Both the position numbers and the translations under genes were made by a program. A DNA stretch of 64,000 bases, taken from positions 100,703 through 164,702 of the forward strand of contig CAZBPV010000001.1 in the NCBI GenBank assembly GCA_964493885.1, given 5' to 3'. Source of the DNA: Candidatus Woesearchaeota archaeon (GTDB lineage: Archaea; Nanobdellota; Nanobdellia; Pacearchaeales; GW2011-AR1). Of this stretch, positions 31,694-49,100 are shown one piece after another; position 1 is the stretch's first letter; every line of letters begins with the position of its first letter. The notes under the pieces were generated by a model. It was not told where the DNA came from. It did not search any database and saw only the letters and a list, made by a program, of their open reading frames with translations.

Positions 31694-31782
31694 GGTAAAT
31701 CATCTTATCACCTCTTAACCTTAAGCTAATATTCTAAAGTTTCCATTTATGTTAAATGTATTGATTAGGTTTTTTTTACTAT

Positions 31783-32814: not shown

Positions 32815-33155
32815 TCCACTATCCTATATTGGTCTGGAGTCCATTTAGGAGAATTCATAACTGCTAAAACCAATTTGCTTCCATCCACCCAATATCTTTC
32901 CCCTCTTTCAAAATGATAAGAATCTCCTTGATTAAGATTAAAATCGCCTCTGTCTGAATGAATACTCCCTGATCCAGATAGAGCATAATATATCTGTTCA
33001 CAACTGAGATTTGTAGCTCTCTTTTCTTGAGGGTATCTCCCATCAATTAATGCTGTTGCGAAACTTAGGCTTTCTGTAGGATGGTTGTGTTCCCACACAC
33101 TGCAAGTATTATCGGAGTTATCATACCTTTTTGCACCCTCTTTTTTAACTAGCAT
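32811..33155 (-). CDS. Cupin-domain protein
   Basis: YALSGSGSIHSDRGDFNLNQGDSYHFERGERYWV fits a cupin beta-barrel pattern. Confidence 0.5.
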   Translation of the reverse strand: MLVKKEGAKRYDNSDNTCSVWEHNHPTESLSFATALIDGRYPQEKRATNLSCEQIYYALSGSGSIHSDRGDFNLNQGDSYHFERGERYWVDGSKLVLAVMNSPKWTPDQYRIVD

Positions 33156-33257
33156 CTTAGGATGAATATAGAACTATTTTTAATCTTTTAGGCGATATAT
33201 TACTATTAATCCTTAATAATCAATAAAGTCTATAAACAATATCTTCCTCATTTTTTA

Positions 33258-34625
33258 ATGTCAAAAAATATGTGGATTTTAACTGAAGAAAGACCTAAAA
33301 AAGAAGTTTTAAAAAAAATTATAGAAAAATTTTGTTTAGATAGAGGAATTAAAGCTAATTTTTCCACTCTCAGAATAAACCCTCTTATGGATGGTAATAA
33401 GTTTACATTCACTTATGAATTGGAGGGCATTAGTTCAAAAGATATAAATAAATTCTATATAAAGACAGTAAGTGGAAATAGTAGTTTTGTAGATTTTCTT
33501 ATATTCTTTCAAGAAAAAGAACCAATTGAAGGTGAAGAGCCACTTTATGCCATTGAGGAAACAAAAACCGATGATAGTGAATCAAGAAATACTGGGGTTT
33601 ATCAAAGATGTTCTAAATTTGTCTATCTTAACTTTTATTATCCTAATTGTAAGAAGATAATGCTTTATAATTTGAGGGTTATTCAAAAAGATAAACCAAC
33701 ACAAACAAATATATTCGGGACAAGAATGTTATTAACTTTGGGGGTAGAGATATTGGGTAAAAGATTAGATCCAGAAGTTTTCAAAAGATTTGATAATCTT
33801 GAGGATTTAATTAGTTTCAAAGAAGCGATGAGAAAAGCTCCTAAAGGAAATACTCCTATATTCATAACTAAAGATACAAATAGCATTTCTGTATCTGGTA
33901 GGTTATTTAAGGCAGGAGGTTTGAGCCACGATCCTAATATGGGGGCATTATCCTTAATCTGTCAAACTATCCGAAAATTGGGTTGGGATAAAGAAATAAA
34001 AATCATATTACATGGATTATCTCAAAAGAATCTAACTGGAAGAAATAAATTTATTAAAATTGCAAATAAATTGAACATTAAATTAGATGGATTAAATTTA
34101 CCAACAAGTGATTTATCTGAAAAATATTGGCATTACGAAAGAAATTCAGAAAAAATAGGAACTATTTTTGTTCATTTGATTTTAGAAGAATTAAATGGAA
34201 TAAAATCAATATATGAAAATCATGCCGGTTGTGAAAGAGGATATTTATATTGCCCGAGTGGAATTTGTATAGCGATTCATAAGTACATTGAGAATAAAAA
34301 AGAAAATGGAGCAATACCCAAATTGCCTGATTTGATTATCCTTAATGAACCAGAAAGTAGATTATATGAATTTGAGGGAAAAACTTCTGTAAATGTTAAT
34401 GAAGGAATATCGGAGATAAACCTTTTTGGAATTATAGAAAAAGAATATTTAAAGAAATATTACCCCAAATATGCGGTTGAAAGGGGAGTAATTCTATTTG
34501 GAGGTAATGAAGATAGAATCAAGGAAAAAGAAGTAATTTTCTTGATGACTTCTAATGGAAAGATAGTGTTATCTAAAAATACCCCAAAAATTATCTTAGA
34601 CGCTTTGAATAATCTTAATTCTTAA
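33258..34625 (+). CDS. Candidate type II restriction endonuclease (PD-(D/E)XK motifs)
   Basis: SFVDFLIFF...PLYAIEETK (D...ExK) and PDLIILNE...LYEFEGK. The gene is convergent with the Dam-like MTase gene and overlaps it by 11 nt. Confidence 0.45.
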   Translation: MSKNMWILTEERPKKEVLKKIIEKFCLDRGIKANFSTLRINPLMDGNKFTFTYELEGISSKDINKFYIKTVSGNSSFVDFLIFFQEKEPIEGEEPLYAIEETKTDDSESRNTGVYQRCSKFVYLNFYYPNCKKIMLYNLRVIQKDKPTQTNIFGTRMLLTLGVEILGKRLDPEVFKRFDNLEDLISFKEAMRKAPKGNTPIFITKDTNSISVSGRLFKAGGLSHDPNMGALSLICQTIRKLGWDKEIKIILHGLSQKNLTGRNKFIKIANKLNIKLDGLNLPTSDLSEKYWHYERNSEKIGTIFVHLILEELNGIKSIYENHAGCERGYLYCPSGICIAIHKYIENKKENGAIPKLPDLIILNEPESRLYEFEGKTSVNVNEGISEINLFGIIEKEYLKKYYPKYAVERGVILFGGNEDRIKEKEVIFLMTSNGKIVLSKNTPKIILDALNNLNS

Positions 34626-35655
34626 CCTCTACCAAAAACAAAAGTTCTTTAAGATCTTCTTTAAGCCCGCTTCCATTAGAATTACTTTTGTACCTTCTAT
34701 ATTCTTTATGGTAGACTTTAACCTTCCCCTTCTCAGATAATATCCTCTTTATTTCCTCACATGGAATTATCCCTTCACTATTATAACTTAAAAGAATAAA
34801 TTTGCATTTTGCATTTTTTATCAAATCTTCAAAAACCCGTATGCATTTAGAGGAATAACAATAATTTGATTTTTGCTTTTCATAATATCTTAACCCTGTT
34901 TTATTATTTATTATCTCTTTATCCCAAACAGCAATCGTTTCTAATAAATGGTAATTTGTAGCATATTGCCTATTATTATAGGGAGGATCAATATAAAGAA
35001 TATCACAGGATATCTCTTTAATTAATTTATTAGAATCTTCTTTATGGCATTCATGTTTTAATTCACTTTCGATTAATGTTGGGATTTCTAATAACAATGG
35101 TTTAAATTTTCTTGGATCATCGATTTTCATAAATGCCCCATAAGTTCCAGCGATATTTGAGACGGAAGGAACAACCTCTAAAAGAGAACATAATAAGATA
35201 TAAAACTCCTCATCAGTTATCTTTTTACTATCTTTCCATTCTTGAAGTTTATCTCGGATAGCATCTATTTTTTTAGCATTTTCGGAGGAGAAATAATTTC
35301 TAGTATGTTCTTTATCTTCTGTCCCCTCTGGACAATAATTATTATAAATAAAACCTTTCTTTCCATTTAACTCATTAAGAAAAGAGATTACTTTGAAGAT
35401 ATCTGGATTCTTAATATCCTCCGATAACCCTTCAAAAGAAGGAACCTTATTATTACAAATATAAGCTCTTTCAAAAACATAGGAATAAGTCATAAAATCA
35501 TTTGAGATTATTCTAAAACCCTTTTTCTTAAAAAACTTAGAAACGCTTGTAGTTCCGGAAAAAATATCACAGAATATTCCCTTGGGAAGATTATTCTCAG
35601 TAACAACTGAATAAATAAATTCTAAGAGTTTTGATTTATTCCCAATATATCTCAT
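34615..35655 (-). CDS. D12-class (Dam-like) N6-adenine DNA methyltransferase
   Basis: MRYIGNKSKLL start, FCDIFSGTTSV (motif I) and YIDPPYNNRQY (motif IV). Confidence 0.85.
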   Translation of the reverse strand: MRYIGNKSKLLEFIYSVVTENNLPKGIFCDIFSGTTSVSKFFKKKGFRIISNDFMTYSYVFERAYICNNKVPSFEGLSEDIKNPDIFKVISFLNELNGKKGFIYNNYCPEGTEDKEHTRNYFSSENAKKIDAIRDKLQEWKDSKKITDEEFYILLCSLLEVVPSVSNIAGTYGAFMKIDDPRKFKPLLLEIPTLIESELKHECHKEDSNKLIKEISCDILYIDPPYNNRQYATNYHLLETIAVWDKEIINNKTGLRYYEKQKSNYCYSSKCIRVFEDLIKNAKCKFILLSYNSEGIIPCEEIKRILSEKGKVKVYHKEYRRYKSNSNGSGLKEDLKELLFLVEVKN

Positions 35656-36194
35656 TTTTCTTTTTTGAATATTTTAATCTTATCAAACAATTCCTGTATG
35701 CTCTTTAGTTCTTCATCATATAATACATAATTGTCTAAATATCCATTATTCTCTATTCGATTGATTATTAATAAATCTTTTTTGGAAAACCAGCCAAGCA
35801 ATACTCCCTCTTTCCTATCGGGATACAATCTTACAGAAATATAAATATCTTTAGGTTTCTTCCTAAATTGCTCTACCATCTCCAGAGTTCTTGTATGAAA
35901 CTCCTGTGTTCTAGTCTTAATATCTATTGTTGATTTGTCAGGTAAGATGAAATCATATGAATCGGGATCTTTATGACTTGTTTTATCTTCTTCAAAGTTA
36001 ATATTATTCTCTATCAGAAACATTTTGAATATTTTTTCACCAAGTTTTCCTTCGAACATCTTTCTCTGTTTAGCATCCAAACCTCCCTCATGAAAATCAT
36101 GTCGATTAGAAGTAAATTTTTTTGAAATAATGGCGTAAATCCACGCTTCTTTAATTAGTTCATCTGAAATTTTATATATTTTTCTTAGAATCAT
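35652..36194 (-). CDS. Small PD-(D/E)XK-like nuclease candidate, the R subunit between two MTase genes
   Basis: DPDSYDFILPDKSTIDIKTRT (D...D-x-K). Coding overlaps with both flanking MTase genes. Confidence 0.4.
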   Translation of the reverse strand: MILRKIYKISDELIKEAWIYAIISKKFTSNRHDFHEGGLDAKQRKMFEGKLGEKIFKMFLIENNINFEEDKTSHKDPDSYDFILPDKSTIDIKTRTQEFHTRTLEMVEQFRKKPKDIYISVRLYPDRKEGVLLGWFSKKDLLIINRIENNGYLDNYVLYDEELKSIQELFDKIKIFKKEK

Positions 36195-37161
36195 CTTCTT
36201 CTTTCCTAAATATCAGAATATATTGGTGAAGTTGATTAGCAACAAAAGAGAAAGGATATCCATAAGGATAGAGATTTAATGTTTTATCATACCAGATTTT
36301 ATATCCTTTAAATTGAAGTCCATCAATTTTTGAAAGACTTGAGACTATATCTGCATGTAAAAGGTTATGATGGTTCTTACTTGGTTGCATATCTTTACAA
36401 AATACTACAAGATAACCTCTATTCTTTAAAAATTTTAATGATTTTTTTATAATTATTTCAAACTCCCCAAAAAATTCTTCATAACCGATATTCCCTAAAT
36501 CTCTTTCGTCCTCTGTAAAGTTGCCTTTATCTTTTCTATCCCCCCCCGTTCTCTTTTTAGAAAGCATATTAGCATAGGGAGGATCTGTTAAGATTAAATC
36601 AAATTCATGAGAGATAACCTCCGGGATTTTATCAAGATTCCTCGCATCTTGTTTTATTGTGATCTGTTGTTTTAATCCTTCTTGATTAGCTACTTTTTTA
36701 TAAACTTCTAAATAATTTTGTTCTAAATCTATGCCGACAGCATGTCTTATGGGATCACATAAAGAAGCTCCTAATAATGTTCCTCCTACACCTACAAATG
36801 GGTCTAAAACCCATCCATCTGCTTTTGTAAAAAATCTAATTAGATCCCTCATTAGAGTAGGGGGTTTTGGAGATGGATGAATCTTCCTAAGTTTATGTCC
36901 TACCGAATCCTTTCCATTAGTAGTATAATGGGTAGGGATTATAGAATCCTGCAAGAATTTCCAAAGTTCAAGTTCATCTTCATTTGAGGCAAAATCTGTT
37001 TCCATAATAGAGTTTATAAAATGAGTCCATTCTTTACCAGTTAAATCATTTAATTTATTTCGAATATCATATGTTCCCCTTTGTCCCAAATCTCTTCCAT
37101 ATTTCTTAACTTTAGGAGCACCTTCAATTAATCTCTTTAATTCCTCTTTTATCATAAACAA
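36172..37161 (-). CDS. N6/N4 DNA methyltransferase (motif I before DPPY), containing a G8 homopolymer
   Basis: VLDPFVGVGGT (motif I) and LILTDPPYANM (motif IV). The C8/G8 run at 36540..36547 encodes TGGD. Confidence 0.8.
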   Translation of the reverse strand: MFMIKEELKRLIEGAPKVKKYGRDLGQRGTYDIRNKLNDLTGKEWTHFINSIMETDFASNEDELELWKFLQDSIIPTHYTTNGKDSVGHKLRKIHPSPKPPTLMRDLIRFFTKADGWVLDPFVGVGGTLLGASLCDPIRHAVGIDLEQNYLEVYKKVANQEGLKQQITIKQDARNLDKIPEVISHEFDLILTDPPYANMLSKKRTGGDRKDKGNFTEDERDLGNIGYEEFFGEFEIIIKKSLKFLKNRGYLVVFCKDMQPSKNHHNLLHADIVSSLSKIDGLQFKGYKIWYDKTLNLYPYGYPFSFVANQLHQYILIFRKEEDDSKKNI

Positions 37162-37303
37162 AAATAACCCCGAATATATATAAATCTTGTCTAATCAAAT
37201 TAGTCACTAACCAGTTTATGGTTCTATATGCCGAGTGACTCTTTAACCTTTTCCTAATACTTTAGCCTCGATAAAGAGATAAAATAGCATGAAAAAAGCC
37301 TGC

Positions 37304-40300
37304 CTAGTTTTTAGCGGTTTTTATAATCTTATCTAAATTAGTCTTTAGGTATCTTAAATCGATGGTTTTTCCAAATCTAGAATAATTTTTTACCTTATTT
37401 CTATTGGTTACAACAAAAAACCATTCATCATAGCCTTGATTTAATAATTCTATTTTAGTTTTCAAGTGATTTACATTAGAAAGTACTGCTCCGGTTTCTA
37501 CTTCTATGGCTTGTCTTTTATTATTCAAGATAAATATTACATCTGCAGTTTTAGTTAAAGAAATTTGTGCATTAATCTTATTTTTATTTAGATAGTTCGC
37601 AATATCATGCATCACGAAGAAATGTTTTTCAGATTCCTTAAATCTAGGTTTTAGCAAATAGTATTCTTCTTTTTCAGAATTAATGCTTTTCTGTTTAGAG
37701 ATTACATAGTTCTTAGCTAGAAGATATTTCACCTCATTTTCATTCAAATCCTTTTTTCTAAAGAATCTTTGACTTTCATCAACCTTAATATCTATTCTTT
37801 TAGCAAGTTCTTTCTTCTTTTTTTGGGCTTTCTTTTTTTGCTTTAATTCGGGTTTTTTTACTTCGATTTTAGATTCTGTCTCAAGTATCTTAATCTCCTT
37901 TACTTCTTCAACCGGATTTTTATCTTCTTTCACTATTTTTTCTGTATCTATTACCCTTTCAATCGGCTTTTTTCCATTAGCCAAAATCTCATCAGCATTA
38001 GTTGTGATTAAATCATGTTCTTTTTTAGAGGCAATTATCTTTAAGTTAGAATGCTCATCTTCAATAATCAAAATTCCCTCCCCCAACAATGCAGTCAAAA
38101 GAGCTATCCTTTCTGAGCTACTCAAATGGAATACTTTTTGAATGTCATCTATAACCGCAGGTTTTTGCTTTAATAAGATAGTATAGGAGCTATTTGCTAA
38201 AACAGATCTCCCTGCTTTAGAATTTAGCATATCTTCTACTTCTTGATTAATTAAGAATAAACCTAGATTAAACTTCCTGCAGGTTTTAACTATTTCAAAG
38301 ATATAAGACGCTTCATGGGTTTTGCTTAATAAGGACCAAGCCTCATCTATTACTAACAATTTCCTCTCTAAATCTCCCTTCATCTTAGTATAAACATAAT
38401 CTAAAACAAGGAACATCATAATCGGTTTTACTTGTTTTGGGAGATTTCCGATATCCACACATACAAATTTATTATTAAAATCTATTTTTGTATGCTTATT
38501 TAGGAAAGAGAATACTCCCGTAACATAGAGATTTAATCTATTCATTAAACTCCTTATTGTAGTCTTTTCTAGGCTAGTTGCTTTTTTTTCGATATTTTCT
38601 AGGATCTTCAGGAGATCGCTTAAAATCGGGGGCTCGTTGCCCCAAGAATCCCTATCATTCATATATATCCCTTTTCTTTCATAAGTTTCTGTTAAAGCCT
38701 TATCCAAGATAGCTTTTTGAGGCTCAGATATATCTCCTAACATAACAGGCATTAAATCCATTAAAGTAAGCCTTTTCTCGGGATAATCATGTCCCATTAA
38801 ATCTAAAGGATTAATTATAGTATTTGAGGTTCTGCTTAAATCTATTAATTGCCCATTAAATTTCTTTACTAGGTTTTTGTATTCTCCCTGAGGATCTATC
38901 ACAATAACTTTATTCCCATTAAGGAGATACCTCGAAATGAATAATTTAGCCATATAGCTCTTTCCTGCTCCAGAACTAGCTAAACAAATGCCATTTGCAT
39001 TAGAAAGTTTGAATATATCCCGAATTATTGGAATCTTATTTTTATTTAATCCAAACCATATTCCAGTATCATCAATCTTAAGGAAAGAAGATGTAAAAGG
39101 AAAAAACGCAGACAATCCTGTCGTAGTGATATTTCTCCTCATATTTATAGAATCTTGATTAAGAGGCAGGCAAGATTTAAACCCTTGAATCATTCTAAAA
39201 TCTGCTTGCTTAGGAATTATTAATAGAGAATTAAGCTCCGACTCTACTTTTTTAGTAAGCAAATCTAACTCTTTTTCTGTATCTGCCTTGCAATTAATAT
39301 ATAAACTAACATTAAACAACTTCTCATTTCCTTTTTGGAGATTCTCTAATGTCTTTAAAGTATCTTTATATTGAATTTGAAGGCTTGGGTTTAACTGGTT
39401 TTTAATCTTAGCTGAATACAAATCTGCCCTTTGTTTTTGTAGTTCTTTATTTAATATAATCATAGTTTGCTCTAGAAGTAATGGTTCGATATGCAATGAA
39501 AGATTAAAGTCTCCTAAGGAACTCACAATTTTATCCAAAAAACCAGATTCAACGATTCTAGGATAACCATGAGCATAGATTGTCCTACTGAACTTATCAT
39601 TTATTTTAACATGAGAGGGTTTATTCTCAATCTTTTCTGGCAGATAAGTATCTTTATTGCTAATATTAAACAATTGCGTTAAAAGAGCAGTTAATTGTTT
39701 ATTATGCAATCTCTGTGTTCTTAGGTTTAAACCATTCAGTCTTTCCTCGCAAATCTTTATTTGTATATCAATATCTGTTTTTTCAGGAATTACAACATAA
39801 AAATTCCTATTTGAAACGCTATTTTCACTTATTATCTCTTGCATATGCGTTTTATATTCTTCAAATATCTCTTTAGAGTGTTCATTATTTATCCTAGATT
39901 CCAAACTCTTGAAATAATCTTTTATGCTTAGATTCTCCGTAGTCATTAAAATTTGAATAGGAAAATCCAAGGAATTAAGAAATTTCTGAAATGCTAATGT
40001 TATAGTTTCCTGTTCTTTTTCTGGTTTAATTTGAAAGTTAATAGAATCTATTTTTAACACCGCTAATTTTTCTTTTTGAGTAAAGATTAGATTATCATCT
40101 ATCTTCTTAATTGCAAAAAATTGCTCTATCTTTTCTTTAAGGTTCATTTCTCTTAATCTATACCATGTAATCCACTTTTTGAGTTTAGATCCTAAATCAA
40201 AGAATATGAATCCAATTCCTAAAAGACAAGGGAATAAGGCAAAGATAAATCTTACATAAATATTTACCCCCCATTTAAAGAAGATTAAAAAGGAGATTGG

Positions 40301-40390
40301 AAAGAATACAAAAGCATAAGCTAGTTGGCTAAATGTTAAGCCAAACACTATTTTCTCTTTATATTCTAGTTGTTGAGGTATTTCGTACAT
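37304..40390 (-). CDS. Fusion protein: PrgI/VirB3-like N-terminus, VirB4/TrbE-type ATPase, and a C-terminal PD-(D/E)XK-like domain
   Basis: MYEIPQQLEYKEKIVFGLTFSQL plus 2 TM helices. Walker A is GICLASSGAGKSY and Walker B is LLVIDEAW. The C-terminus reads SEKHFFVMHD...ADVIFILNNKRQAIEVETG. Confidence 0.7.
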   Translation of the reverse strand: MYEIPQQLEYKEKIVFGLTFSQLAYAFVFFPISFLIFFKWGVNIYVRFIFALFPCLLGIGFIFFDLGSKLKKWITWYRLREMNLKEKIEQFFAIKKIDDNLIFTQKEKLAVLKIDSINFQIKPEKEQETITLAFQKFLNSLDFPIQILMTTENLSIKDYFKSLESRINNEHSKEIFEEYKTHMQEIISENSVSNRNFYVVIPEKTDIDIQIKICEERLNGLNLRTQRLHNKQLTALLTQLFNISNKDTYLPEKIENKPSHVKINDKFSRTIYAHGYPRIVESGFLDKIVSSLGDFNLSLHIEPLLLEQTMIILNKELQKQRADLYSAKIKNQLNPSLQIQYKDTLKTLENLQKGNEKLFNVSLYINCKADTEKELDLLTKKVESELNSLLIIPKQADFRMIQGFKSCLPLNQDSINMRRNITTTGLSAFFPFTSSFLKIDDTGIWFGLNKNKIPIIRDIFKLSNANGICLASSGAGKSYMAKLFISRYLLNGNKVIVIDPQGEYKNLVKKFNGQLIDLSRTSNTIINPLDLMGHDYPEKRLTLMDLMPVMLGDISEPQKAILDKALTETYERKGIYMNDRDSWGNEPPILSDLLKILENIEKKATSLEKTTIRSLMNRLNLYVTGVFSFLNKHTKIDFNNKFVCVDIGNLPKQVKPIMMFLVLDYVYTKMKGDLERKLLVIDEAWSLLSKTHEASYIFEIVKTCRKFNLGLFLINQEVEDMLNSKAGRSVLANSSYTILLKQKPAVIDDIQKVFHLSSSERIALLTALLGEGILIIEDEHSNLKIIASKKEHDLITTNADEILANGKKPIERVIDTEKIVKEDKNPVEEVKEIKILETESKIEVKKPELKQKKKAQKKKKELAKRIDIKVDESQRFFRKKDLNENEVKYLLAKNYVISKQKSINSEKEEYYLLKPRFKESEKHFFVMHDIANYLNKNKINAQISLTKTADVIFILNNKRQAIEVETGAVLSNVNHLKTKIELLNQGYDEWFFVVTNRNKVKNYSRFGKTIDLRYLKTNLDKIIKTAKN

Positions 40391-40391
40391 C

Positions 40392-41204
40392 TTATTTCAT
40401 TAAATTAACCATTTGTTTTAATTTATTGACTTTAAGTGCAGCTTTTACAATTACAAAAAGCAGTAGAAGTGCTGTTGAGATAATTATCATATCTAAAGTT
40501 CCGACCATTATCATTGTCTTAAAATCCCTAAAAGCAGACAACTCAGATATTTTAGAGCCTATGAGAAACATAATTGAATAAAAGAAAGGTAGAAAAATCA
40601 AGGTGCATAATCCATTGATGATTAATCTTCCATATTGGTTTAAGGGAGAGAAAAAATAAAAGAAAATTCCTATTGCAAAAAATATAACCCCCGAACTAAC
40701 AGAGATATATCTTAATAAGAGAAGAACTAAAACAACGATTAAGTGAATTAAATAAAGAATCCCAAAGACTAAATCAAATCCAAAATTGTAATAATGACTT
40801 AGTGTTAATTGAAAGAAATTGTTTCCGACTAAATTTAATATTGTCTTTGTTAGTGCAGAGGAGATTGCAATAATTAAGTCATAAAGGTGGTAGCTTCCTT
40901 GAACAAGAATCATCATGATGATTATACTCTTTAAATCTCCTTTTGCCTCTGTTCTTTTTTCAGGAGATTCTGCAGAAACTATAAATTTCAATCCGATCCA
41001 TACTAAAAGCAATCCATAAAACATTGAGAGAATATAAACAATAATTCCCCAAATGCTTGCAAATACTGAAATATTGACTGGTTCTGATAAAAACTTATGA
41101 ACAAGATTAAGAAAAGGAGTGCATGCTAAATTGATTGCATCAAGAATAAACTCAAAGAGAGTCTCAACTATGCATGCCCCTAAATTTGTCAAACTGCATT
41201 CCAT
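40392..41204 (-). CDS. Polytopic membrane protein in the VirB6/TrbL (CedA/TedA-like) position
   Basis: At least 6 hydrophobic helices. There is a 1-nt gap to the ATPase gene. The assignment rests on context only. Confidence 0.4.
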   Translation of the reverse strand: MECSLTNLGACIVETLFEFILDAINLACTPFLNLVHKFLSEPVNISVFASIWGIIVYILSMFYGLLLVWIGLKFIVSAESPEKRTEAKGDLKSIIIMMILVQGSYHLYDLIIAISSALTKTILNLVGNNFFQLTLSHYYNFGFDLVFGILYLIHLIVVLVLLLLRYISVSSGVIFFAIGIFFYFFSPLNQYGRLIINGLCTLIFLPFFYSIMFLIGSKISELSAFRDFKTMIMVGTLDMIIISTALLLLFVIVKAALKVNKLKQMVNLMK

Positions 41205-41205
41205 T

Positions 41206-41529
41206 TTAACCCAGTATTAGATTAACTACAAAAGGAGCTGCCCAAATAACCATCAATCCAATAATCACATACATAATCATATTCTTTGCGTTCTCTCTTT
41301 TCATTGGATCTGCCCCACTTGTGATGTAGGTTATTCCTGCAAAAAGCATCACTATTCCTGCGATGATAGTAGCAGAATACTTAACTAAGTTATAGACAGT
41401 AGTCAATGGTTGCAAAATCTCTGAAAAATTGTCTGAAGCACTAACCAAGACAAGCTGAACTATCAGCAAAGCCAAAAATCCCAAAATAACTACTATTCTC
41501 TTATCTCCTCTGCATTCTTTATATGACAT
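41206..41529 (-). CDS. VirB2/TrbC-pilin-like small protein
   Basis: Signal-like N-terminus VVILGFLALLIVQLVLVSA followed by two hydrophobic helices separated by SGADPMKRENAKN. A GGAGG sits 6 nt upstream of the ATG. Confidence 0.45.
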   Translation of the reverse strand: MSYKECRGDKRIVVILGFLALLIVQLVLVSASDNFSEILQPLTTVYNLVKYSATIIAGIVMLFAGITYITSGADPMKRENAKNMIMYVIIGLMVIWAAPFVVNLILG

Positions 41530-41648
41530 TTTAACCTCCTTTCAAGTTCTTTAAAATCTGGGTATTTTCTTCTCAAAACTTCCAAACAACTATAACAAAA
41601 ATATTTTTCATATATTCTCAATATAGCATTACATAAAAGGCATTTCAT
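41493..41648 (-). CDS. Small zinc-finger ORF (51 aa), not in the track; candidate first gene of the transfer operon
   Basis: Hand translation gives MKCLLCNAILRIYEKYFCYSCLEVLRRKYPDFKELERRLKCHIKNAEEIRE, with CxxC...CxxC. A TATA-like TTTAATTTATAAT lies about 29-32 nt upstream. Confidence 0.3.
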   Translation of the reverse strand: MKCLLCNAILRIYEKYFCYSCLEVLRRKYPDFKELERRLKCHIKNAEEIRE

Positions 41649-41768
41649 AAAATCCGGAGACTGCAGGATTATAAATTAAATCGGAGAAGGATTGGGAGCT
41701 AAAAAGTAGTGTGAGAAATAGCTATTTTTTCTCCTATTTGTTATAAAGTTTTCAAGATTATTTTTCTC

Positions 41769-41891
41769 ATGATAGAAAAAGATATTGGGGAGGAAATTAT
41801 TCTGAAACTGAAACAATTGATTAGAGAATTGGAAAAATTAAGGGATATTCATGAAAAAAAACTCGCATATTCACATAGTGATAGAAACTGA
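41769..41891 (+). CDS. Possible 40-aa helical ORF
   Basis: MIEKDIGEEIILKLKQLIRELEKLRDIHEKKLAYSHSDRN. A TATA-like TTATAAAG lies about 28 nt upstream. It overlaps the next ORF out of frame. Confidence 0.2.
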   Translation: MIEKDIGEEIILKLKQLIRELEKLRDIHEKKLAYSHSDRN

Positions 41892-42054
41892 ATATATAGA
41901 TAAGTTAAGGAAAGAGGCAGAAGAAAAAGGGGTGACTCTTTCCGAGTTATGCAGACAGAAATTAAGATGTTTTACCCAATTGGATAAGATAGAAACAATG
42001 CTTGAAAAATTTTGCAAAGATGGAAAAGAATATTCCCTTAAACCAAATAATTAA
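41851..42054 (+). CDS. Ribbon-helix-helix (CopG/Arc-like) protein, a possible controller for the downstream methyltransferase
   Basis: SHIHIVIETEYIDKLRKEAEEKGVTLSELCRQKL fits a strand-helix-helix pattern. Confidence 0.5.
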   Translation: MKKNSHIHIVIETEYIDKLRKEAEEKGVTLSELCRQKLRCFTQLDKIETMLEKFCKDGKEYSLKPNN

Positions 42055-42673
42055 AGGAGATTGTATAGAATTTTTGAAAACTCTCCCCAATAATTGTATT
42101 AACCTGATTATTACGGATCCTCCTTATGGTGACAATGTGGCTTATGGTTGGAACAATAAAACAATAAAAAATAATGAGAATCCTTTAATTTGCTGTCAGG
42201 CTTTAGCAGAATGCTATCGGGTTCTGAAACAAAACTCCTCTCTTTATACTTTTACTAACTGGAAACACTACCCTTTCCTAGTGGAATTCATAACAAGATA
42301 CACTAAATTCAGAATAAGGCATTTAATTGTCTGGAAAAAACATAACTTTGGACTAGGATGGGCATTTAGGCATCAATATGAGCTAATTCTCGTTTTAGAA
42401 AAAGGTAAGCCCAAGTATAATTTAACTAATTTCTCCGATGTTCAAACTTGCAGTCATATTAATCATAACAAGGAAAATCACCCTCATGAAAAGCCGATTG
42501 ATTTAATCCATAAGATGATAGAACATAGCTCAAAGAAGGGAGATTTAATTCTAGATCCTTTTTGTGGAAGTGGGGCTGTTTGTTTAGCTTGCCAGCAGGC
42601 AAATAGGGATTTTATTGGAGTTGAGTTAGATAAGAGATATGTTGAGATGGCTCGAGAGAGGGTTAAGTTTTAA
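42020..42673 (+). CDS. Beta-class N6/N4 DNA methyltransferase (DPPY before FxGxG)
   Basis: LIITDPPYG (motif IV) is N-terminal and ILDPFCGSGAV (motif I) is C-terminal. The start is set at the ATG at 42020. Confidence 0.85.
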   Translation: MEKNIPLNQIIKGDCIEFLKTLPNNCINLIITDPPYGDNVAYGWNNKTIKNNENPLICCQALAECYRVLKQNSSLYTFTNWKHYPFLVEFITRYTKFRIRHLIVWKKHNFGLGWAFRHQYELILVLEKGKPKYNLTNFSDVQTCSHINHNKENHPHEKPIDLIHKMIEHSSKKGDLILDPFCGSGAVCLACQQANRDFIGVELDKRYVEMARERVKF

Positions 42674-44669
42674 GAGGATTACTTCCTTTTTCTTTAGCTA
42701 ATCGAATAACCACAGAACGTTCAGTCAATTTTTTCGCAGTATTTAAGTCTTCAACTAATTTCTCCTTTTCTAGTCTTAATTTAGAATCTAAGAATTCATA
42801 AGCCATATCAAATTCATCAAAAATATCACACCACCTTTTAACATATATCTTAAAACTACCTACAGAATAAGCTAAGTTAGGTTCACCATGATTCTTGTTA
42901 CTTTCTATTTGTCCTCCAATAAATCCTTCATCATCAAAATTATTCCCTATTAAAATAAAATCCCATTTAGCATGATTAGATTTAAACTCGGGTTGTTGGA
43001 GTATCATCATCCTATATTTATCTACTTGAAGGTATTCTTTTGAACCTAATTTGACTTTGGGACTTTTTAATTCGACTAAGACATTTTTAATAACATCTCT
43101 TTCTTTTCTTCGCTTACATAGAAAAAGATCTAATCTTTTTTTTCGATATTCTTCTATTTTTATCTCTGGTTTTTTGGACTCCCCATCTAATATCCAAAGA
43201 TAATTTTCTAAGGATTTTTGAAATCCTTCATCTTCAGAAACAAGATTATATTGCTCACCAAAAATCCAATAATTATTAGCTATAATTTTTTGAAGATGAT
43301 CTCTTTCATTGGCATTCAATTCTTTTTCAAAAACCAATTTCTTTAAACATTCAATAACCCTAAATCTTTCAGTTAGAAGATTTATTGTTTTTATAATCCT
43401 CCCCATCTTAGTATATTGCAAAACTCCTTGTAACTCAGTTCTTTCTTGTGGGGTTAATTTAACAATTTGATCGATTATATCTAATACTCTCTCTCTTTCA
43501 TCAGAATCTAAGACTAAATCTAAAAAACCCATAAAAATTTTTCTCTGATCAGGTTTTAAATCCTTAAATACAATTGGATGAATCTCATAAATCTCCTTTA
43601 TCACTTCTTTTAAATCCTCATTTTTTATTTTCTCAAAACTATCTTCAACATCTTTTTTTATTATTCCTTCATCCTCTAATTGAATTATTAATTTGTCAGA
43701 ATTTTCTTTTAATAAAGGCTTTCTTTTTTGTAAAAGATAATTATAAATCTCGCTATGTATTTCCTTAAAAATCTTATCATTCCTTGTTAGTCCCATCAAC
43801 GCTTTCTGAGAATCTTCTTTGGAATGAAAATTAAAATCTTTAAAATATTTATTGGCTATATAGATGCTTGGATAGAAAAAATCCCCTTGTCTATTAAATG
43901 AGCTGTATTCTTTATAGATTTCATTTAATTCAGAATCTAAATAATATATTTTAGATCCTTCTTCATTTATTGAATCCTTCCATCGTATATATTTAACCTT
44001 AAATGATTCTTTTTCTCCAGTGGGATTGATTTTAAACTCATCTTTTTCGGCAATTATACTGGAATAATCTAGTTCTTTATTATTTAAAGTTATTTTATAA
44101 TTTTTATTTTTATTCAATTCTAAGAACCATCCAAATTCTTTTTTTAGATATTCCTGCAATTCCTTAATTAAATTATCTTTGTTTACCTCTTTTAAAAAAC
44201 CTTCAAAAATTACATTTGTACCTAAAGGATTCTTACTTTCTTTGGGAGAATCATTTTCATAATTTTGTATATCATTCGATCCTATCTTTATTACATATTT
44301 CATATTCTTATCCTTATCTAAGTAAATTGTTTCCCATCTAACTCTACAAGCAAATTTAAAGAAAGTAAGTCTACCATACCCATTTCTACCATGTAATCTT
44401 GAATGATGAAAATCATCTTCATCTTCTTTGTGAGAATCATAAAAAGGCTTGAATTTTTTTGTAAGCTGAGTATAATCTATGCCAGATCCGTTATCCTTAA
44501 TTTCTAATTTCTGGAGGATTCCACCATTAAAGCCACAGACAATTTCTACATTATCTGCTCCAGCATCAAAACCATTCCAGATATATTCAGAAACAGCCCT
44601 ACAAAAATTATATTTATTTAAAACCTTTCTAATTCCTTTAGAACTAATCTCAACTTTTTCTTTCATCAT
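42663..44669 (-). CDS. GHKL/MORC-like ATPase fused to a Shedu (DUF4263)-like PD-(D/E)XK nuclease domain
   Basis: The N-terminus has AVSEYIWNGFDAGADNVEI (N box) and IKDNGSGID (G1 box). The C-terminus has NNYWIFGEQY...KKRLDLFLCKRR...NVLVELKSPKVKL...LQVDKY. Confidence 0.55.
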   Translation of the reverse strand: MMKEKVEISSKGIRKVLNKYNFCRAVSEYIWNGFDAGADNVEIVCGFNGGILQKLEIKDNGSGIDYTQLTKKFKPFYDSHKEDEDDFHHSRLHGRNGYGRLTFFKFACRVRWETIYLDKDKNMKYVIKIGSNDIQNYENDSPKESKNPLGTNVIFEGFLKEVNKDNLIKELQEYLKKEFGWFLELNKNKNYKITLNNKELDYSSIIAEKDEFKINPTGEKESFKVKYIRWKDSINEEGSKIYYLDSELNEIYKEYSSFNRQGDFFYPSIYIANKYFKDFNFHSKEDSQKALMGLTRNDKIFKEIHSEIYNYLLQKRKPLLKENSDKLIIQLEDEGIIKKDVEDSFEKIKNEDLKEVIKEIYEIHPIVFKDLKPDQRKIFMGFLDLVLDSDERERVLDIIDQIVKLTPQERTELQGVLQYTKMGRIIKTINLLTERFRVIECLKKLVFEKELNANERDHLQKIIANNYWIFGEQYNLVSEDEGFQKSLENYLWILDGESKKPEIKIEEYRKKRLDLFLCKRRKERDVIKNVLVELKSPKVKLGSKEYLQVDKYRMMILQQPEFKSNHAKWDFILIGNNFDDEGFIGGQIESNKNHGEPNLAYSVGSFKIYVKRWCDIFDEFDMAYEFLDSKLRLEKEKLVEDLNTAKKLTERSVVIRLAKEKGSNPLKT

Positions 44670-44717
44670 CTGAGAACTTAATCAAATTATATAAATTTAC
44701 CTAAATCAAGAATATTT

Positions 44718-45863
44718 TTAATTCTCCACCACAATCAACCCTTTATCCACCAACTGCAATATCCTCTGCATTTGACTCTCCATATTCCCCATTTTATCCT
44801 TTAAAATTTCATTCTCTCTTTTGAGTCTTACTTGCTCTTGTTCTAATTCAGTCTTTGTTGTATCTATCAGAATATCTTCTTCACTAATTGTGTCTCTCAT
44901 TCCTAACATCTCACTATAATAATAAATCTTATCCGACTTCTTCCAACCAAATCTGAATTTTAAAGCAGATTCTGATTTATACCTAGGAAGCCAATAACAA
45001 CAAGAGCAATGTCTGAAATCATACATCGTTAATTCAGAATACTTTTTTCCTGCGGGGCTTTTGCAGTCTCCAAATAATCTCCCTGCGATTCTCTTGAGAT
45101 ATTGATTTACTGCAGGAGGGCTGATTTTAAACAAATAATCTTCAGGAGAGAGTCTATTGGACTGAACGAACTCCTTAACTAGCTCGGAACAGAGCATAAG
45201 TTTAATCCTTCTCCCAAAAGTCTTACTTATTTCCTCTCTGATGCAAACCTCTTTATAGTCTTTATAGAAATCTGAAACCTTAATATTCATTAATTCTGTT
45301 GGAGATCTTATGCCCGAATCAAATAAAAACATAATCAAAACTCTGTAATTAGGTTTAACATTCTCAGCAAGTTTCTTTATCTGATTCTCATCTAAATATA
45401 CCCATTCAGGTTTTTCTTGACTCATATCCAGATCAATAGTTATATCCTCTACTTCCTCCCCTCTTTTCCGGCTAGATTTTTGATGCCAATGCCAAAAAGC
45501 TTTGAAAACTTTAATGTAATCTGATACGGATTTGTAGATACCGCCATCTAATCTTGTAATTATCCCATTTCTCATGTCTGAAAAATAATTATGCAGTTGC
45601 TGTTCATTTATCTTCCTTAAATCGCTTATCCCAAACCTCTTTTCAAATTGCTTAGACATGAATATCATTCTCTGCTTTAAATTATTGAGTCGAATAAAAC
45701 TTCTAGAGCCTTTTGAAGATCCTATATTTAGCCCCTTTTCCATATCTGCTAGATAAGATAATATAAACTCAGAGTTGCTTTTAGAAATGTCCGGAATGAT
45801 TAATGAGTTGTTTTCTTTCCATTTAAGGTATCTTTCTTTGTGTTTATAGGGATCTATTTTCAT
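44718..45863 (-). CDS. Tyrosine recombinase/integrase
   Basis: FDSGIRSPTEL (catalytic Arg region), MYDFRHCSCCYW (HxxR-type box) and a C-terminal Tyr-rich KIYYYSE. The gene is adjacent to the tRNA 3' end. Confidence 0.8.
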   Translation of the reverse strand: MKIDPYKHKERYLKWKENNSLIIPDISKSNSEFILSYLADMEKGLNIGSSKGSRSFIRLNNLKQRMIFMSKQFEKRFGISDLRKINEQQLHNYFSDMRNGIITRLDGGIYKSVSDYIKVFKAFWHWHQKSSRKRGEEVEDITIDLDMSQEKPEWVYLDENQIKKLAENVKPNYRVLIMFLFDSGIRSPTELMNIKVSDFYKDYKEVCIREEISKTFGRRIKLMLCSELVKEFVQSNRLSPEDYLFKISPPAVNQYLKRIAGRLFGDCKSPAGKKYSELTMYDFRHCSCCYWLPRYKSESALKFRFGWKKSDKIYYYSEMLGMRDTISEEDILIDTTKTELEQEQVRLKRENEILKDKMGNMESQMQRILQLVDKGLIVVEN

Positions 45864-45946
45864 ATTCTTTTTTAAGCCTATGTTTTTTATAACATATATG
45901 GCTCGAAGTTGTCATAAAATCCCATCAAAATAACAAAATACTAAAA

Positions 45947-46059
45947 CGCCCCAACCGGGAGTCGAACCCGGATCGCATCCGTTCTGCGAATCTGAAACCA
46001 TATTTGAAGGGTTTCATTCTCGCGACAGGGATGAGTCATAGCCGCTAGACCATTGAGGC
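45947..46059 (-). tRNA. tRNA-Asp (GUC) with a 41-nt intron at or next to the canonical position in the anticodon loop
   Basis: Hand fold: acceptor GCCTCAA/TTGGGGC with discriminator G, anticodon stem CATCC/GGATG, loop CTGTC(G/A)C, T-arm CCGGG-TTCGACT-CCCGG. The intron contains a TGAAACC/GGTTTCA hairpin. Total is 113 nt, made of 72 plus 41. Confidence 0.75.
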
Positions 46060-46109
46060 ACAATTAAATTAGATGTAAAATAATTTTTAAATCTTTGCTA
46101 TTACCAAAT

Positions 46110-46117
46110 TTTAAATA
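46110..46117 (+). promoter_or_regulatory. TATA box TTTAAATA, 29 nt upstream of the ATG at 46139
   Basis: Read directly. Confidence 0.6.
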
Positions 46118-46138
46118 CTGCAATTATCTTATTCAAAT

Positions 46139-46960
46139 ATGGCTGATGCAAAAAAGGGGTATGTAAAATGGCTTGTTACAGCAATAACATTATCTTTTCT
46201 TCTATTTATTATATTTATTGGAATATACTTTTATCTTTCATTTAATAAGGAATTTAATGCAATAACTTCCACTCTAAATGTTTTAAGAAATGGAGGAGCA
46301 AACCTTGAATTAATAAATAACATAAAAACTAATCTTGCTGATGCAACTTTTTTATTCACCTCTCAGGCAGCTACTTTTATTGCAGCAATAATCTGCCTTA
46401 TAATAGGATTATGGTATAGCCTTCAATTATACCTGGTTGAAAAAAGAAATGCCTTGATTGACCCTTTAACTCAATTATATAATAGAAAGGCAGTTTTCTT
46501 TGAACTAAAAAGGGAATTAAGAAAATCAGAAAGATACGGACACCCAACAAGTGTTGCAATGCTTGATTTAGATTTTTTCAAGAAATACAATGATAATCTC
46601 GGGCATATTGCTGGTGATAGATTATTAAAAAGATTCGCAATGATTCTAAAAGAAAATGTAAGAGAGTATGATATTTATGGAAGATATGGCGGGGAAGAAT
46701 TTATTATTGTCTTTCCAGAAACAGGTGTTAGTGATGCAGGAAAAGTATGCCACAGAATACGTGAATCTCTTGAAAGAACTAAGTTTTATGGACAGGATAA
46801 AATGCCTTTTAAGAAAATAACAGTAAGTGTTGGTGTTGCAGAGGTGAAAGGAAGAAGAAAAATAAAAAAAGAGACACTAATTCATAATGCAGATGTTTGC
46901 CTGTACAAGGCAAAAGAATCAGGCAGAAATCAAGTCCAAGAGTGCCCTTTTGGTGCGTGA
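46139..46960 (+). CDS. Membrane-anchored diguanylate cyclase (GGDEF domain with an RxxD I-site)
   Basis: Two N-terminal TM helices. Motifs seen: DPLTQLYNR, LDLDFFKKYND, REYDIYGRYGGEEF and LYKAKESGRNQV. Confidence 0.85.
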   Translation: MADAKKGYVKWLVTAITLSFLLFIIFIGIYFYLSFNKEFNAITSTLNVLRNGGANLELINNIKTNLADATFLFTSQAATFIAAIICLIIGLWYSLQLYLVEKRNALIDPLTQLYNRKAVFFELKRELRKSERYGHPTSVAMLDLDFFKKYNDNLGHIAGDRLLKRFAMILKENVREYDIYGRYGGEEFIIVFPETGVSDAGKVCHRIRESLERTKFYGQDKMPFKKITVSVGVAEVKGRRKIKKETLIHNADVCLYKAKESGRNQVQECPFGA

Positions 46961-47083
46961 TTGATAACTCCTAATTGGATTTAATCACAATTATTCTATT
47001 AATTCAAAAAACCTTATATTTATGAGAAACTACTTGCAATAATATTTTAATCTATAAAGTTAAAAAGAGGGGATAACTTCTTC

Positions 47084-48349
47084 TCATTTTTTCTTTTCAA
47101 TCTTTTTCATTCCATTCATATAAGGCTGTAAAATTTTAGGAATATTTATACTTCCGTCTTTATTTTGATTGTTTTCAATTAATGATATAAGTAATCTCGG
47201 AGTTGCCAACCCGCTTCCATTTAGAGTATGAACAAACTTTAATCCATCTTTTCCCTGATATCTTGTATTCATTCTTCTTGCCTGGAAATCAGTACAGTTG
47301 CTGCATGATGAAGTCTCAAGATATTTCTTCATTGCAGGGCTCCAGACTTCTAAATCATAAGTCTTGGCAGAAGCAAATGAAGCATCAGCTGTTGCAAGAA
47401 CAATTACTCTGTAAGGAAGTTCTAAAAGTTGCAATAATTTTTCAGCCCTCTTTGTCATTTCCTCATGCAATTGCCATGAATCTTCTTGTCTACAAATATA
47501 AACCATCTCAACTTTTTCAAATTCATGAAGCCTAAATATCCCAGGAGTCTCGCTTCCATGTTTCCCAGCTTCTGTCCTATAACACTGAGTAAAAGCAACA
47601 AACTTTTTAGGAAGCTCTTTTTCAACAAGAGTCTCATCAGCATAAATATTTGTTACAGGAACCTCTGCAGTGGGAATTGGATAAAGCCCTTCTCTTGTCT
47701 TGTATAAGTCACATTCAAATTTAGGAAGATTTCCAGTTCCAAACATTATTTTTTCATTAACTAATTGAGGAGGATTTATCTCAATAAACCCATCTTTAAC
47801 ATGAAAATCAAGCATAAAATTAATCAAAGCTCTCTCTAATCTTGCTAAATCTCCTTTAAATAAATAAAAACCACTTCCAGATATCTTTGCTCCTCTTTCC
47901 ATATCCAGCAATCCAAGATTCTTAAGAAGCTCGTCATGACTCTTTACTGGAAAATCAAACTTAGGAAGTTTTCCGCCTTTTCTAATCTCTTTATTTTTAT
48001 CTTCTCCTCCAACAGGCACACTCTTGTCTTGAAAATTAGGTATTACAGCAAGTAAATTAAATATCTCTAACTCTAATTTTTTTCTCTTTTCTCCTTGCTT
48101 TTCAATCTCAATAGGAATCTTTTTTGCTTCAGCAATCTCTTTTTTAGCTGTTTTGCCTTGTTTTTTTAATTCATTTATTTTCTGAGAAATCTCATTTCTT
48201 TGTTTTCTTAATCCATCTTCTTTGTATTTTATTTTTCTCCACTCTGTATCAAGTTTGATAATCTTTCCAACATCAACTTCATACCCTCTTTCTTTAACAC
48301 TCTTTTTTACAAGCTCAGGATTTTCCCTGATATGCTTTATATCTATCAT
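47084..48349 (-). CDS. serS: Seryl-tRNA synthetase
   Basis: MIDIKHIRENPELVKKSVKERG with a coiled-coil arm and class II motifs (FRLHEFEKVE, GSGLATPR). Confidence 0.9.
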   Translation of the reverse strand: MIDIKHIRENPELVKKSVKERGYEVDVGKIIKLDTEWRKIKYKEDGLRKQRNEISQKINELKKQGKTAKKEIAEAKKIPIEIEKQGEKRKKLELEIFNLLAVIPNFQDKSVPVGGEDKNKEIRKGGKLPKFDFPVKSHDELLKNLGLLDMERGAKISGSGFYLFKGDLARLERALINFMLDFHVKDGFIEINPPQLVNEKIMFGTGNLPKFECDLYKTREGLYPIPTAEVPVTNIYADETLVEKELPKKFVAFTQCYRTEAGKHGSETPGIFRLHEFEKVEMVYICRQEDSWQLHEEMTKRAEKLLQLLELPYRVIVLATADASFASAKTYDLEVWSPAMKKYLETSSCSNCTDFQARRMNTRYQGKDGLKFVHTLNGSGLATPRLLISLIENNQNKDGSINIPKILQPYMNGMKKIEKKK

Positions 48350-48370
48350 CTATCAAAGAGTAAAATATTG

Positions 48371-48378
48371 TATTTAAA
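48371..48378 (-). promoter_or_regulatory. TATA box TTTAAATA (minus strand), 29 nt upstream of the serS ATG
   Basis: Read directly. Confidence 0.6.
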
Positions 48379-48435
48379 TCTTGTGTGGAAAAATATTGGT
48401 TTTGCTAATCTTTTTTAAAAAGATTAATTGAAAGA

Positions 48436-48443
48436 TTTAAAAA
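48436..48443 (+). promoter_or_regulatory. TATA box TTTAAAAA, 29 nt upstream of the ATG at 48465
   Basis: Read directly. Confidence 0.55.
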
Positions 48444-48464
48444 TAGTATCAACTTCAAGTAGTT

Positions 48465-49100
48465 ATGGCAGTATTTCAAGGAATAGGTGAAGTTTTATTA
48501 GCAGCATACGAGTCTCTTATCTCTGCAGTTCCTATAACTGTTCAGTTATTTATAAAATTCTTTGTACTTGCTTTATTAATTGTTCTTTATGCTCTCTTTG
48601 TCTGGAAATTTTATCAATCAATTGGGAAAAAGAATCTTATTGAGCTTAATCTCAGCAAATATAATAAATCAAAACATCCTTTTTTTGAGAAACTTCTTGC
48701 TGGAGCACTTTTTCTCTTAGAGTATATAATTATTATCCCTATTGCAATCTTTTTGTGGTTTGCGTCCTTCACAATCTTTTTAATCCTTCTTACTGAAAAT
48801 GTTTCTATAAATTTAGTCCTTATACTTTCTGCAACAACAATAGCAGCAATAAGAATGATTTCTTATCATAATGAAGATTTAGCAAAAGATGTTGCTAAAC
48901 TAATTCCATTTACACTTCTTGCAACTTCATTGCTAGCTCCTGGATTTTTTTCAGTTGAAAGAATTTTAGGACAGATAAAGAATATTCCCTCAGGATTTGG
49001 GAGCATACTCATTTATTTAATGTTTATTATATTCCTTGAAGTAGTATTAAGGGCTCTTGATTTTATAATTTCAATATTTGAATTTGGCGAAGAAGAATAA
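48465..49100 (+). CDS. Hypothetical polytopic membrane protein
   Basis: Multiple hydrophobic helices. Confidence 0.55.
   Translation: MAVFQGIGEVLLAAYESLISAVPITVQLFIKFFVLALLIVLYALFVWKFYQSIGKKNLIELNLSKYNKSKHPFFEKLLAGALFLLEYIIIIPIAIFLWFASFTIFLILLTENVSINLVLILSATTIAAIRMISYHNEDLAKDVAKLIPFTLLATSLLAPGFFSVERILGQIKNIPSGFGSILIYLMFIIFLEVVLRALDFIISIFEFGEEE

Follow-up and report, generated by a model that had tools for sequence, protein, structure and literature searches.

The window analysed here, a 64,000-nucleotide stretch of a Candidatus Woesearchaeota genome assembly (GCA_964493885.1, contig CAZBPV010000001.1), carries on its minus strand an intact gene (42663..44669) for a 668-aa protein that joins a GHKL-type ATPase to a predicted nuclease, with all catalytic residues present and the architecture of paraMORC3 or type I-D Shedu proteins. 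This gene converges on that of a β-class N6/N4 DNA methyltransferase of 217-223 aa (42002/42020..42673, plus strand), and the two open reading frames (ORFs) have 11 nt in common (42663..42673), their stop codons overlapping. The methyltransferase start is in turn overlapped by a 67-aa ORF resembling ribbon-helix-helix (RHH) proteins (41851..42054, plus strand), and divergently transcribed from this RHH-methyltransferase pair lies a conjugation module (37304..41529, minus strand) comprised of a VirB4/TraC-like ATPase of 1028 aa, a 270-aa membrane protein and a TrbC/VirB2-type pilin (Pfam P-loop_TraG 1e-24, T4SS_pilin 1.9e-13 and TrbC 2.6e-9). On the other side, a tyrosine recombinase or integrase gene (44718..45863, minus strand; NCBIfam XerA_Arch 1.9e-11) forms the right-hand end of what we describe below as a cargo slot, and the GHKL-nuclease gene begins 48 nt downstream of it on the same strand. 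GC content is ~30% throughout the window, with no compositional break at the GHKL-nuclease locus. An earlier note on this DNA had read the nuclease, methyltransferase and RHH genes as one restriction-modification-like (R-M-like) defence module; the ORFs, motifs, coordinates and 11-nt convergent overlap that it reported are all present.

The N-terminus of the 668-aa protein is a GHKL ATPase. Pfam HATPase_c_3 matches residues 20-135 (E 3e-16, 60.1 bits against a curated cut-off of 25), and the protein contains the motifs EYIWNGFDAGADNVEI and IKDNGSGID expected of the Bergerat fold, followed towards the C-terminus by NNYWIFGEQY, RLDLFLCKRR, NVLVELKSPKVKL and LQVDKY. In an alignment of 50 homologues of 39-79% identity, the residues of GHKL motif I (the N-box ExxxNxxD, with its catalytic Glu and Mg-binding Asn; E28, N32 and D35) and motif II (DxGxG; D59, G61 and G63) are invariant, as are the glycines of the ATP-lid/G2 region (G94, G97 and G99), whose absence the earlier note had named among the grounds that would refute its reading. 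Residues 78-95 have low confidence (predicted local distance difference test, pLDDT) in the AlphaFold model, as expected of a flexible ATP lid.

The full-length AlphaFold model, built on the same 50-sequence alignment, has a mean pLDDT of 81 and places the domains in the order GHKL, β-rich transducer-like, helical, α/β and terminal helices. On the minus strand of the window, these correspond to the ATPase domain (~aa 1-160, 44190..44669; Pfam, invariant columns and Foldseek), the transducer or S5-like middle domain (~aa 164-290, 43800..44180; AlphaFold secondary structure and Foldseek span), the helical linker region (~aa 299-447, 43329..43775; AlphaFold model) and the nuclease domain (~aa 455-612, 42834..43307; invariant residues, fold match and hidden Markov models, HMMs). 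The long helical middle region anticipated from the sequence is thus recovered by the model, with helices at 299-333, 344-363, 373-387, 392-402, 407-417 and 421-447. A Foldseek search with the full-length model returned Hsp90, TRAP1, MutL, MLH1, Topo II and MORC4 at E-values of 1e-9 to 1e-11, which bears out the GHKL/MORC-like character first proposed for this half; since 320-450 columns are aligned with Hsp90 and MutL, these matches extend past the ATPase domain.

Because the GHKL half dominated the full-length search, the C-terminal 254 aa (residues 415-668) were modelled separately (pLDDT 81). Among PDB structures, this model is closest in fold to E. coli SduA bound to DNA (8ps5_A; probability 0.99, E 5.3e-3, 240 columns, TMq 0.43), with McrC and type II and type IV restriction endonucleases lower in the ranking. 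Across the 50 homologues, the invariant C-terminal residues are E455, H458, Q460, W468, G471, E472, D514, E533, K535, Q548 and Y552, from which we predict a catalytic set of E472 (in WIFGE), D514, E533-x-K535 and Q548xxxY552, the E-D-ExK-QxxxY pattern characteristic of RecB-like PD-(D/E)xK nucleases. Proteobacterial plasmid homologues of 24% identity retain W468, E472, D514, E533, K535, Q548 and Y552, and the similarity remains full length, with the D...ExK motif kept, in a homologue of 28% identity (locus L108, discussed below).

Profile comparisons show a weak similarity to the Shedu family. PADLOC SduA HMMs match nine of the 50 family members at E <= 0.01 (best 3.9e-5) and the window protein weakly (E 0.029); inspected individually, these matches form one co-linear segment, aa ~410-500 against profile positions 201-284. 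With comparison profiles seeded from a bona fide Shedu gene that lies next to one homologue, hhalign gave a weak result against 36 PF14082 proteins (E 0.079) and, against ~150 diverse PF14082-type proteins, E 1e-3 at a probability of 21%, with the E, D, ExK and Q motifs in register. Pfam additionally reports a weak HSDR_N_2 match within the domain. A library search seeded with a short bona fide Shedu subfamily retrieved that subfamily only, with no GHKL-fused form among the best 150; PF14082 is likewise absent from the precomputed Pfam domains of the 120 homologues listed by our database search, and an NCBIfam scan gave no DUF4263 match to the 668-aa protein. Judged by predicted fold and motif order, we read the C-terminal domain as a PD-(D/E)xK nuclease of Shedu-like type; in sequence it is a divergent branch below the Pfam detection limit, for which membership of DUF4263 is weak.

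The fusion of a GHKL ATPase to such a nuclease, which the earlier note did not recognise, is already described: as paraMORC3 since 2008, as Shedu type I-D in 2023-2025, and with one validated member of the class. By definition, paraMORC3 proteins carry GHKL and S5 domains and, at the C-terminus, a conserved domain of restriction-endonuclease fold with the motifs E-D-ExK; their distribution across bacteria and archaea is sporadic, and those that bear the nuclease are frequently solitary genes whose neighbourhoods are not conserved (Iyer, Abhiman and Aravind 2008, PMC2292703). Shedu homologues with an HATPase_c_3 N-terminal domain and a GHKL-type middle domain were placed in type I-D by Gu et al. 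(2023, 10.1101/2023.08.10.552793; Mol Cell 2025), who also noted Shedu nucleases fused to N6_N4 methyltransferase domains as possible equivalents of R-M systems. The validated member is VcSduA of V. cholerae, a GHKL ATPase joined to a DUF4263 nuclease, which alone protects E. coli and V. cholerae from phages, loses protection in the E27A (ATPase) and K557A (nuclease) mutants, and does not kill its host (Adams et al. 2025, PMC12137116); its organisation was equated with both paraMORC3 and type I-D Shedu in the same study.

A database search returned 901 homologues of the 668-aa protein, mostly full length. The 120 that were listed are 648-723 aa long with 93-100% query coverage; among these listed matches, a single homologue is 79% identical and the others are at most 49% identical. 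Named sources include Archaea (Woesearchaeota and Methanophagales) and Bacteria (Bacillota, Bacteroidota and Chloroflexota), and the full-length proteobacterial homologues of 24% identity are consistent with, though not proof of, paraMORC3 membership. To describe the surroundings of the family, we took 80 homologue loci from species-representative genomes and scanned the immediate neighbours against Pfam. A type I HsdR gene is the upstream neighbour in 9 of 64 cases and HsdS the downstream neighbour in 8 of 65, the homologue lying there inside a type I operon. Other upstream methyltransferase neighbours (of the same 64) are N6_Mtase (3), Eco57I (1) and N6_N4_Mtase (1), and on two methanogen-type contigs the homologue comes after genes for a PLD-SNF2 helicase and an Eco57I-type methyltransferase. 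No neighbour recurs in the other loci, where the homologue is surrounded by PIN, NERD, TIR, HipA, Fic, Drt2 and Abi genes and by R-M genes of unrelated kinds. When the window methyltransferase was compared with all proteins of the 80 loci, only two weak matches were found (E 2e-5 and 2e-4). The nuclease-side neighbourhoods therefore give no link to small β-class methyltransferases, and the co-occurrence that the earlier note had expected comes down to the single N6_N4_Mtase neighbour; the pattern is instead the mixture of R-M-linked and standalone genes reported in 2008.

Two arrangements within these neighbourhoods are observations in their own right. At nine loci, from Bacteroidota and others, the GHKL-nuclease gene sits between hsdR (~930 aa, gap of at most 4 nt) and hsdS (overlap of 11-17 nt), with hsdM further downstream, as a recurrent operon; this hsdR/hsdS-embedded subclade may work with type I enzymes. 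One locus, in a Saccharicrinis metagenome-assembled genome (L019, 8001..10884), is a single case of two Shedu-type nucleases in tandem: directly after the paraMORC3 homologue, and sharing 29 nt with it, comes a bona fide Shedu gene of 307 aa (PF14082, E 1.7e-19).

The distribution of the methyltransferase is of another kind. Its assignment as a β-class enzyme holds, with DPPY near the N-terminus, FCGSG near the C-terminus and a Pfam N6_N4_Mtase match at E 1.3e-38. The 67-aa ORF before it, which had been called an RHH protein, has matches that agree with that assignment, all of them weak (NikA-like 0.0085, ORF56 0.009, RelB 0.037). Orthologues of the methyltransferase number more than 120 cluster representatives at 72-100% identity, labelled where names are given as Nanoarchaeota, Pacearchaeota or "archaeon", so that it is far more conserved than the nuclease, for which the matches listed hold one relative at 79% and then none above 49%. 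Contigs carrying such orthologues (73-85% identity) share a backbone with the window: the VirB4/TraC-like ATPase (57% identity), the 270-aa membrane protein (46-63%) and the TrbC-type pilin (63-65%), and, in the divergent arm, the small RHH gene (47%), the methyltransferase (80-82%) and, further on, the tyrosine recombinase (60%). The RHH gene is conserved 5' of the methyltransferase in related loci. Full-length homologues of the window methyltransferase also occur on at least 5000 plasmid records, 3729 of them conjugative. By this synteny, the RHH-methyltransferase pair belongs to the conserved backbone that unites a family of integrative conjugative elements (ICEs) in DPANN-like archaea. By analogy, the methyltransferase is probably an orphan enzyme protecting transferred DNA from restriction in the recipient, since it aligns with the plasmid methyltransferase subfamily PRK13699 and with conjugative plasmid records; the RHH protein is possibly a regulator or a protein that binds the origin of transfer (oriT).

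The gene that converges on the methyltransferase differs among these elements. In three of them the integrase itself does so, with a 9-nt overlap (L089, L090 and L092); in another, L086, HsdM takes this place as part of a type I system and overlaps by 4 nt; and in L093 small unknown genes are followed by the integrase and then by a seryl-tRNA synthetase gene, as in the window. We extended this comparison with a metagenome scan that gave 80 further methyltransferase loci (L098-L177), in 45 of which the methyltransferase-to-integrase interval is complete. These intervals range from no gene at all (gap of at most 220 bp, 8 loci) to ~6 kb, and the GHKL-nuclease is absent from 44 of the 45. The sole exception, L108, holds the 28%-identical homologue mentioned above, co-directional with the methyltransferase, unlike in the window, and probably acquired independently. 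Among the 69 proteins of at least 140 aa in the intervals are HATPase_c_3 proteins (four), C5 methyltransferases (three) and D12 methyltransferases (two), together with GmrSD_N, RloB with AAA_21, Z1, PLD, SNase, Vsr, DUF4411 and DUF2326 domains, a mixture usual for defence islands. In this DPANN conjugative-element family, the stretch from methyltransferase to integrase is a hotspot of defence cargo, and it may be a previously undescribed archaeal one; a brief literature search found no description of the hotspot or of the element family.

The arrangement seen in the window, with the GHKL-nuclease converging on the methyltransferase, recurs only in the 79%-identical relative, and most simply the two represent one element lineage. 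As a separate observation, the integrase end adjoins a seryl-tRNA synthetase gene in both the window and L093, which suggests that these two elements share an integration region. A search for attachment (att) sites, comparing 45800..48500 with 1..41800, found no direct repeat longer than 16 nt and none that was convincing.

Taken together, these results make it likely that the 668-aa gene is a single-gene nuclease directed against phages or other mobile genetic elements (MGEs), of the paraMORC3 / Shedu type I-D class, carried as accessory cargo in the ICE slot of a DPANN-like archaeon; the assignment draws on sequence and on comparative context. If the protein behaves like other GHKL enzymes and VcSduA, its N-terminal domains would dimerise upon ATP binding, and the dimerised GHKL, transducer and helical regions would form a clamp engaging DNA. 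Binding and hydrolysis of ATP would license the PD-(D/E)xK nuclease (E472, D514, E533 and K535) to cut invading DNA, and the nuclease would do so without need of the adjacent methyltransferase. We infer the ATP gating, the dimeric clamp and the defence function in the host from these related proteins. The 11-nt convergent overlap can be ascribed to the dense arrangement of genes at the slot boundary. The gene may also have its own promoter: a candidate archaeal TATA-box-like element, TTTATATA (44688..44695, minus strand), read from the letters, lies ~20 nt 5' of the ATG within the 48-nt gap after the integrase gene, a spacing that suggests a near-leaderless mRNA. A promoter and terminator scan with a sigma-70 model stayed at background level, the sigma-70 consensus not being applicable to archaea, and an Rfam scan gave tRNA-Ser as its sole match.

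Several points weigh against this reading. On the nuclease side, the Foldseek E-value to SduA is modest (5e-3, TM 0.43), Pfam PF14082 (SduA_C, DUF4263) does not match the 668-aa protein at E <= 0.1 or three distant, proteobacterial homologues, and profile searches against PDB sequences miss SduA, the full-length family and the C-terminal domain returning GHKL proteins or nothing. Of the original proposal of a Shedu/DUF4263-like nuclease, the Shedu-like part stands, with SduA as the top fold match and the motifs in order, while the DUF4263 part finds no Pfam match and only weak similarity in sequence. The kinship with VcSduA was drawn from published architecture rather than sequence, and orthology is an inference from that architecture. 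On the side of gene context, about one fifth of the homologues lie inside R-M operons, of types other than that proposed for the window, so that some members of the family may work with methyltransferases, and the 79%-identical relative (two short contigs, L084 and L085) keeps the convergent methyltransferase at 82% identity.

These last points bear on the module first proposed, in which an RHH-controlled β-class methyltransferase marks self and an ATP-gated GHKL-nuclease cuts unmethylated DNA. A convergent 11-nt overlap and a small upstream DNA-binding protein do resemble type II R-M operons, and the 79%-identical relative retains the arrangement. Type I or Eco57I-type R-M operons enclose some members of the family, and the Shedu-methyltransferase fusions noted by Gu et al. 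may be R-M equivalents. The RHH-methyltransferase pair is, however, conserved without the nuclease: in at least 8 of the 45 complete loci the integrase lies directly against the methyltransferase or overlaps it, unrelated cargo fills others, and a GHKL-nuclease, distant and differently oriented, appears in one slot of the 45. The 3' end of the methyltransferase is overlapped likewise by HsdM (4 nt) and by the integrase (9 nt) in other elements, N6_N4 methyltransferases make up 1 of 64 upstream neighbours of the nuclease homologues, most of which have no adjoining methyltransferase at all, relatives of the window enzyme in the 80 homologue loci amount to the two weak matches given above, and VcSduA functions alone in E. 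coli. The pairing of the nuclease with the methyltransferase and RHH genes finds no support in this comparison, as both of the latter occur without this nuclease, or with unrelated cargo, in 44 of 45 loci; comparative context largely refutes it, leaving a lineage-specific possibility only, and we regard such a two-gene module as quite unlikely. Equally improbable in our estimate is the narrower version in which the cargo GHKL-nuclease became coupled to the backbone methyltransferase within the ICE lineage of the window and its 79%-identical relative. If true, it would mean that the element's methylation mark defines self for an ATP-gated Shedu-type nuclease, and that DPANN archaea hold an R-M-like system put together opportunistically, one gene coming from the backbone and the other from the cargo.

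Another possibility is that the gene serves the element rather than the host, in entry exclusion, in killing rival plasmids, viruses or ICEs, as an addiction or stabilisation nuclease, or in processing transfer DNA. The gene does lie on a conjugative element, directly after the integrase gene and on its strand, 14 of 42 plasmid-borne homologues are on conjugative plasmids, and defence cargo on ICEs is often aimed at rival mobile elements. Its absence from 44 of 45 related elements indicates that it is not part of the transfer machinery, and most homologues are chromosomal, among PIN, NERD, TIR, Drt2, Abi and R-M genes. A role confined to the element is unlikely; anti-MGE and anti-phage roles are compatible, and this reading is a nuance rather than a true rival. 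Alternatively, the gene could have decayed or lost its activity, or its C-terminal domain could bind DNA without catalysis, a reading that has the missing Pfam DUF4263 match in its favour; against this, the ORF is full length and co-linear with its homologues from residue 2 to ~650, the catalytic residues of both domains are all intact and invariant, and a plausible promoter of its own precedes it, which together make decay or loss of catalysis very improbable indeed.

On the favoured reading of a single-gene nuclease carried as cargo, the 668-aa gene is an archaeal, ICE-borne addition to a known single-gene defence family, and the tempting combination of a nuclease with a protective methyltransferase is an artefact of synteny, produced by a cargo slot that lies beside a backbone gene. 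The gene itself is then of little consequence, and the cargo hotspot is the more interesting by-product: a hotspot of DPANN conjugative elements that collects diverse defence systems could be mined for archaeal immunity genes. The family reaches DPANN archaea and bacteria of the candidate phyla radiation (CPR) with its catalytic residues intact, yet the Pfam DUF4263 model misses it, so that Shedu censuses based on PF14082 under-count this clade.

Other genes of the window merit brief description. Just left of the VirB4 gene, three overlapping co-directional genes (34615..37161, minus strand) encode a D12/Dam-class methyltransferase (34615..35655; Pfam 4e-41), a 180-aa ORF with no family match and a PD...D-x-K-like motif, DFILPDKSTIDIKTR (35652..36194), for which a PDB sequence search found nothing, and a 329-aa N6_N4 methyltransferase (36172..37161; PADLOC MTase_II 8e-84). 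Together they look like a type II R-M system of two methyltransferases and an unrecognised small endonuclease. The VirB4-like protein itself (37304..40390, minus strand) carries a PrgI-like segment at its N-terminus and, at the other end, an extension of ~130 aa with the motif ADVIFILNNKRQAIEVETG, which resembles a small PD-(D/E)xK/NERD-like module. Between the integrase and the seryl-tRNA synthetase gene lies a GGDEF diguanylate cyclase gene with N-terminal transmembrane segments (46139..46960, plus strand; Pfam 2.3e-44); GGDEF proteins are uncommon in archaea. Markers of an archaeal genome in the window include an Elp3-like radical SAM and GNAT protein (22501..23871), CofD and the XerA-like integrase.

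To place the locus among known systems, we compared each of its two main proteins with the closest described counterparts. VcSduA (A1552VC_00276), from the WASA lineage, shares the N-terminal GHKL ATPase, the clamp-like middle and the C-terminal Shedu-type PD-(D/E)xK nuclease, with the catalytic Glu at E27 there and E28 here and the nuclease Lys at K557 there and K535 here. VcSduA acts as a single gene and is carried on a mobile island, as the window gene is on a conjugative element. The two differ in that a recognisable DUF4263 domain is reported for VcSduA, whereas the window protein and its relatives are not matched by PF14082, and in that the window protein belongs to a DPANN-like archaeon and travels on a conjugative element. 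With paraMORC3, compared by its published definition, the window protein shares the GHKL, S5 and E-D-ExK C-terminal nuclease domains, and its homologues repeat the pattern of many standalone members and some in R-M or helicase neighbourhoods. The 2008 reports are mainly from proteobacteria and bacteroidetes, whereas DPANN and methanogen archaea and CPR bacteria are the sources of the window protein and its closest relatives.

Canonical Shedu SduA (E. coli 8ps5, B. cereus, PF14082) is the best structural match to the C-terminal 254 aa and shares the motif order E, D, ExK, QxxxY and a weak but reproducible co-linear HMM similarity. In contrast to the N-terminal clamp with which canonical SduA senses DNA ends, the window protein has a GHKL ATPase and would be expected to depend on ATP; canonical SduA is a tetramer, whereas the window protein is probably a dimer like VcSduA, which is predicted to form an entwined dimeric clamp, and the sequence similarity of its nuclease lies beneath Pfam detection. 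Some homologues occur in operons like those of the MORC/paraMORC R-M systems with superfamily 2 (SF2) helicases and methyltransferases (Iyer 2008, PMC2292703), but the window gene is accompanied by neither a helicase nor a cognate methyltransferase, the adjoining methyltransferase belonging to the element backbone. That enzyme matches the plasmid subfamily PRK13699 (NCBIfam) end to end (E 9e-33, residues 15-221 against 3-205 of 226), although its 114 bits fall short of the curated cut-off of 244, and, like the orphan methyltransferases of the PRK13699 type, it is a backbone gene beside transfer genes. The methyltransferases of conjugative plasmids are ~33-36% identical to it, and it differs from them also in its archaeal host.

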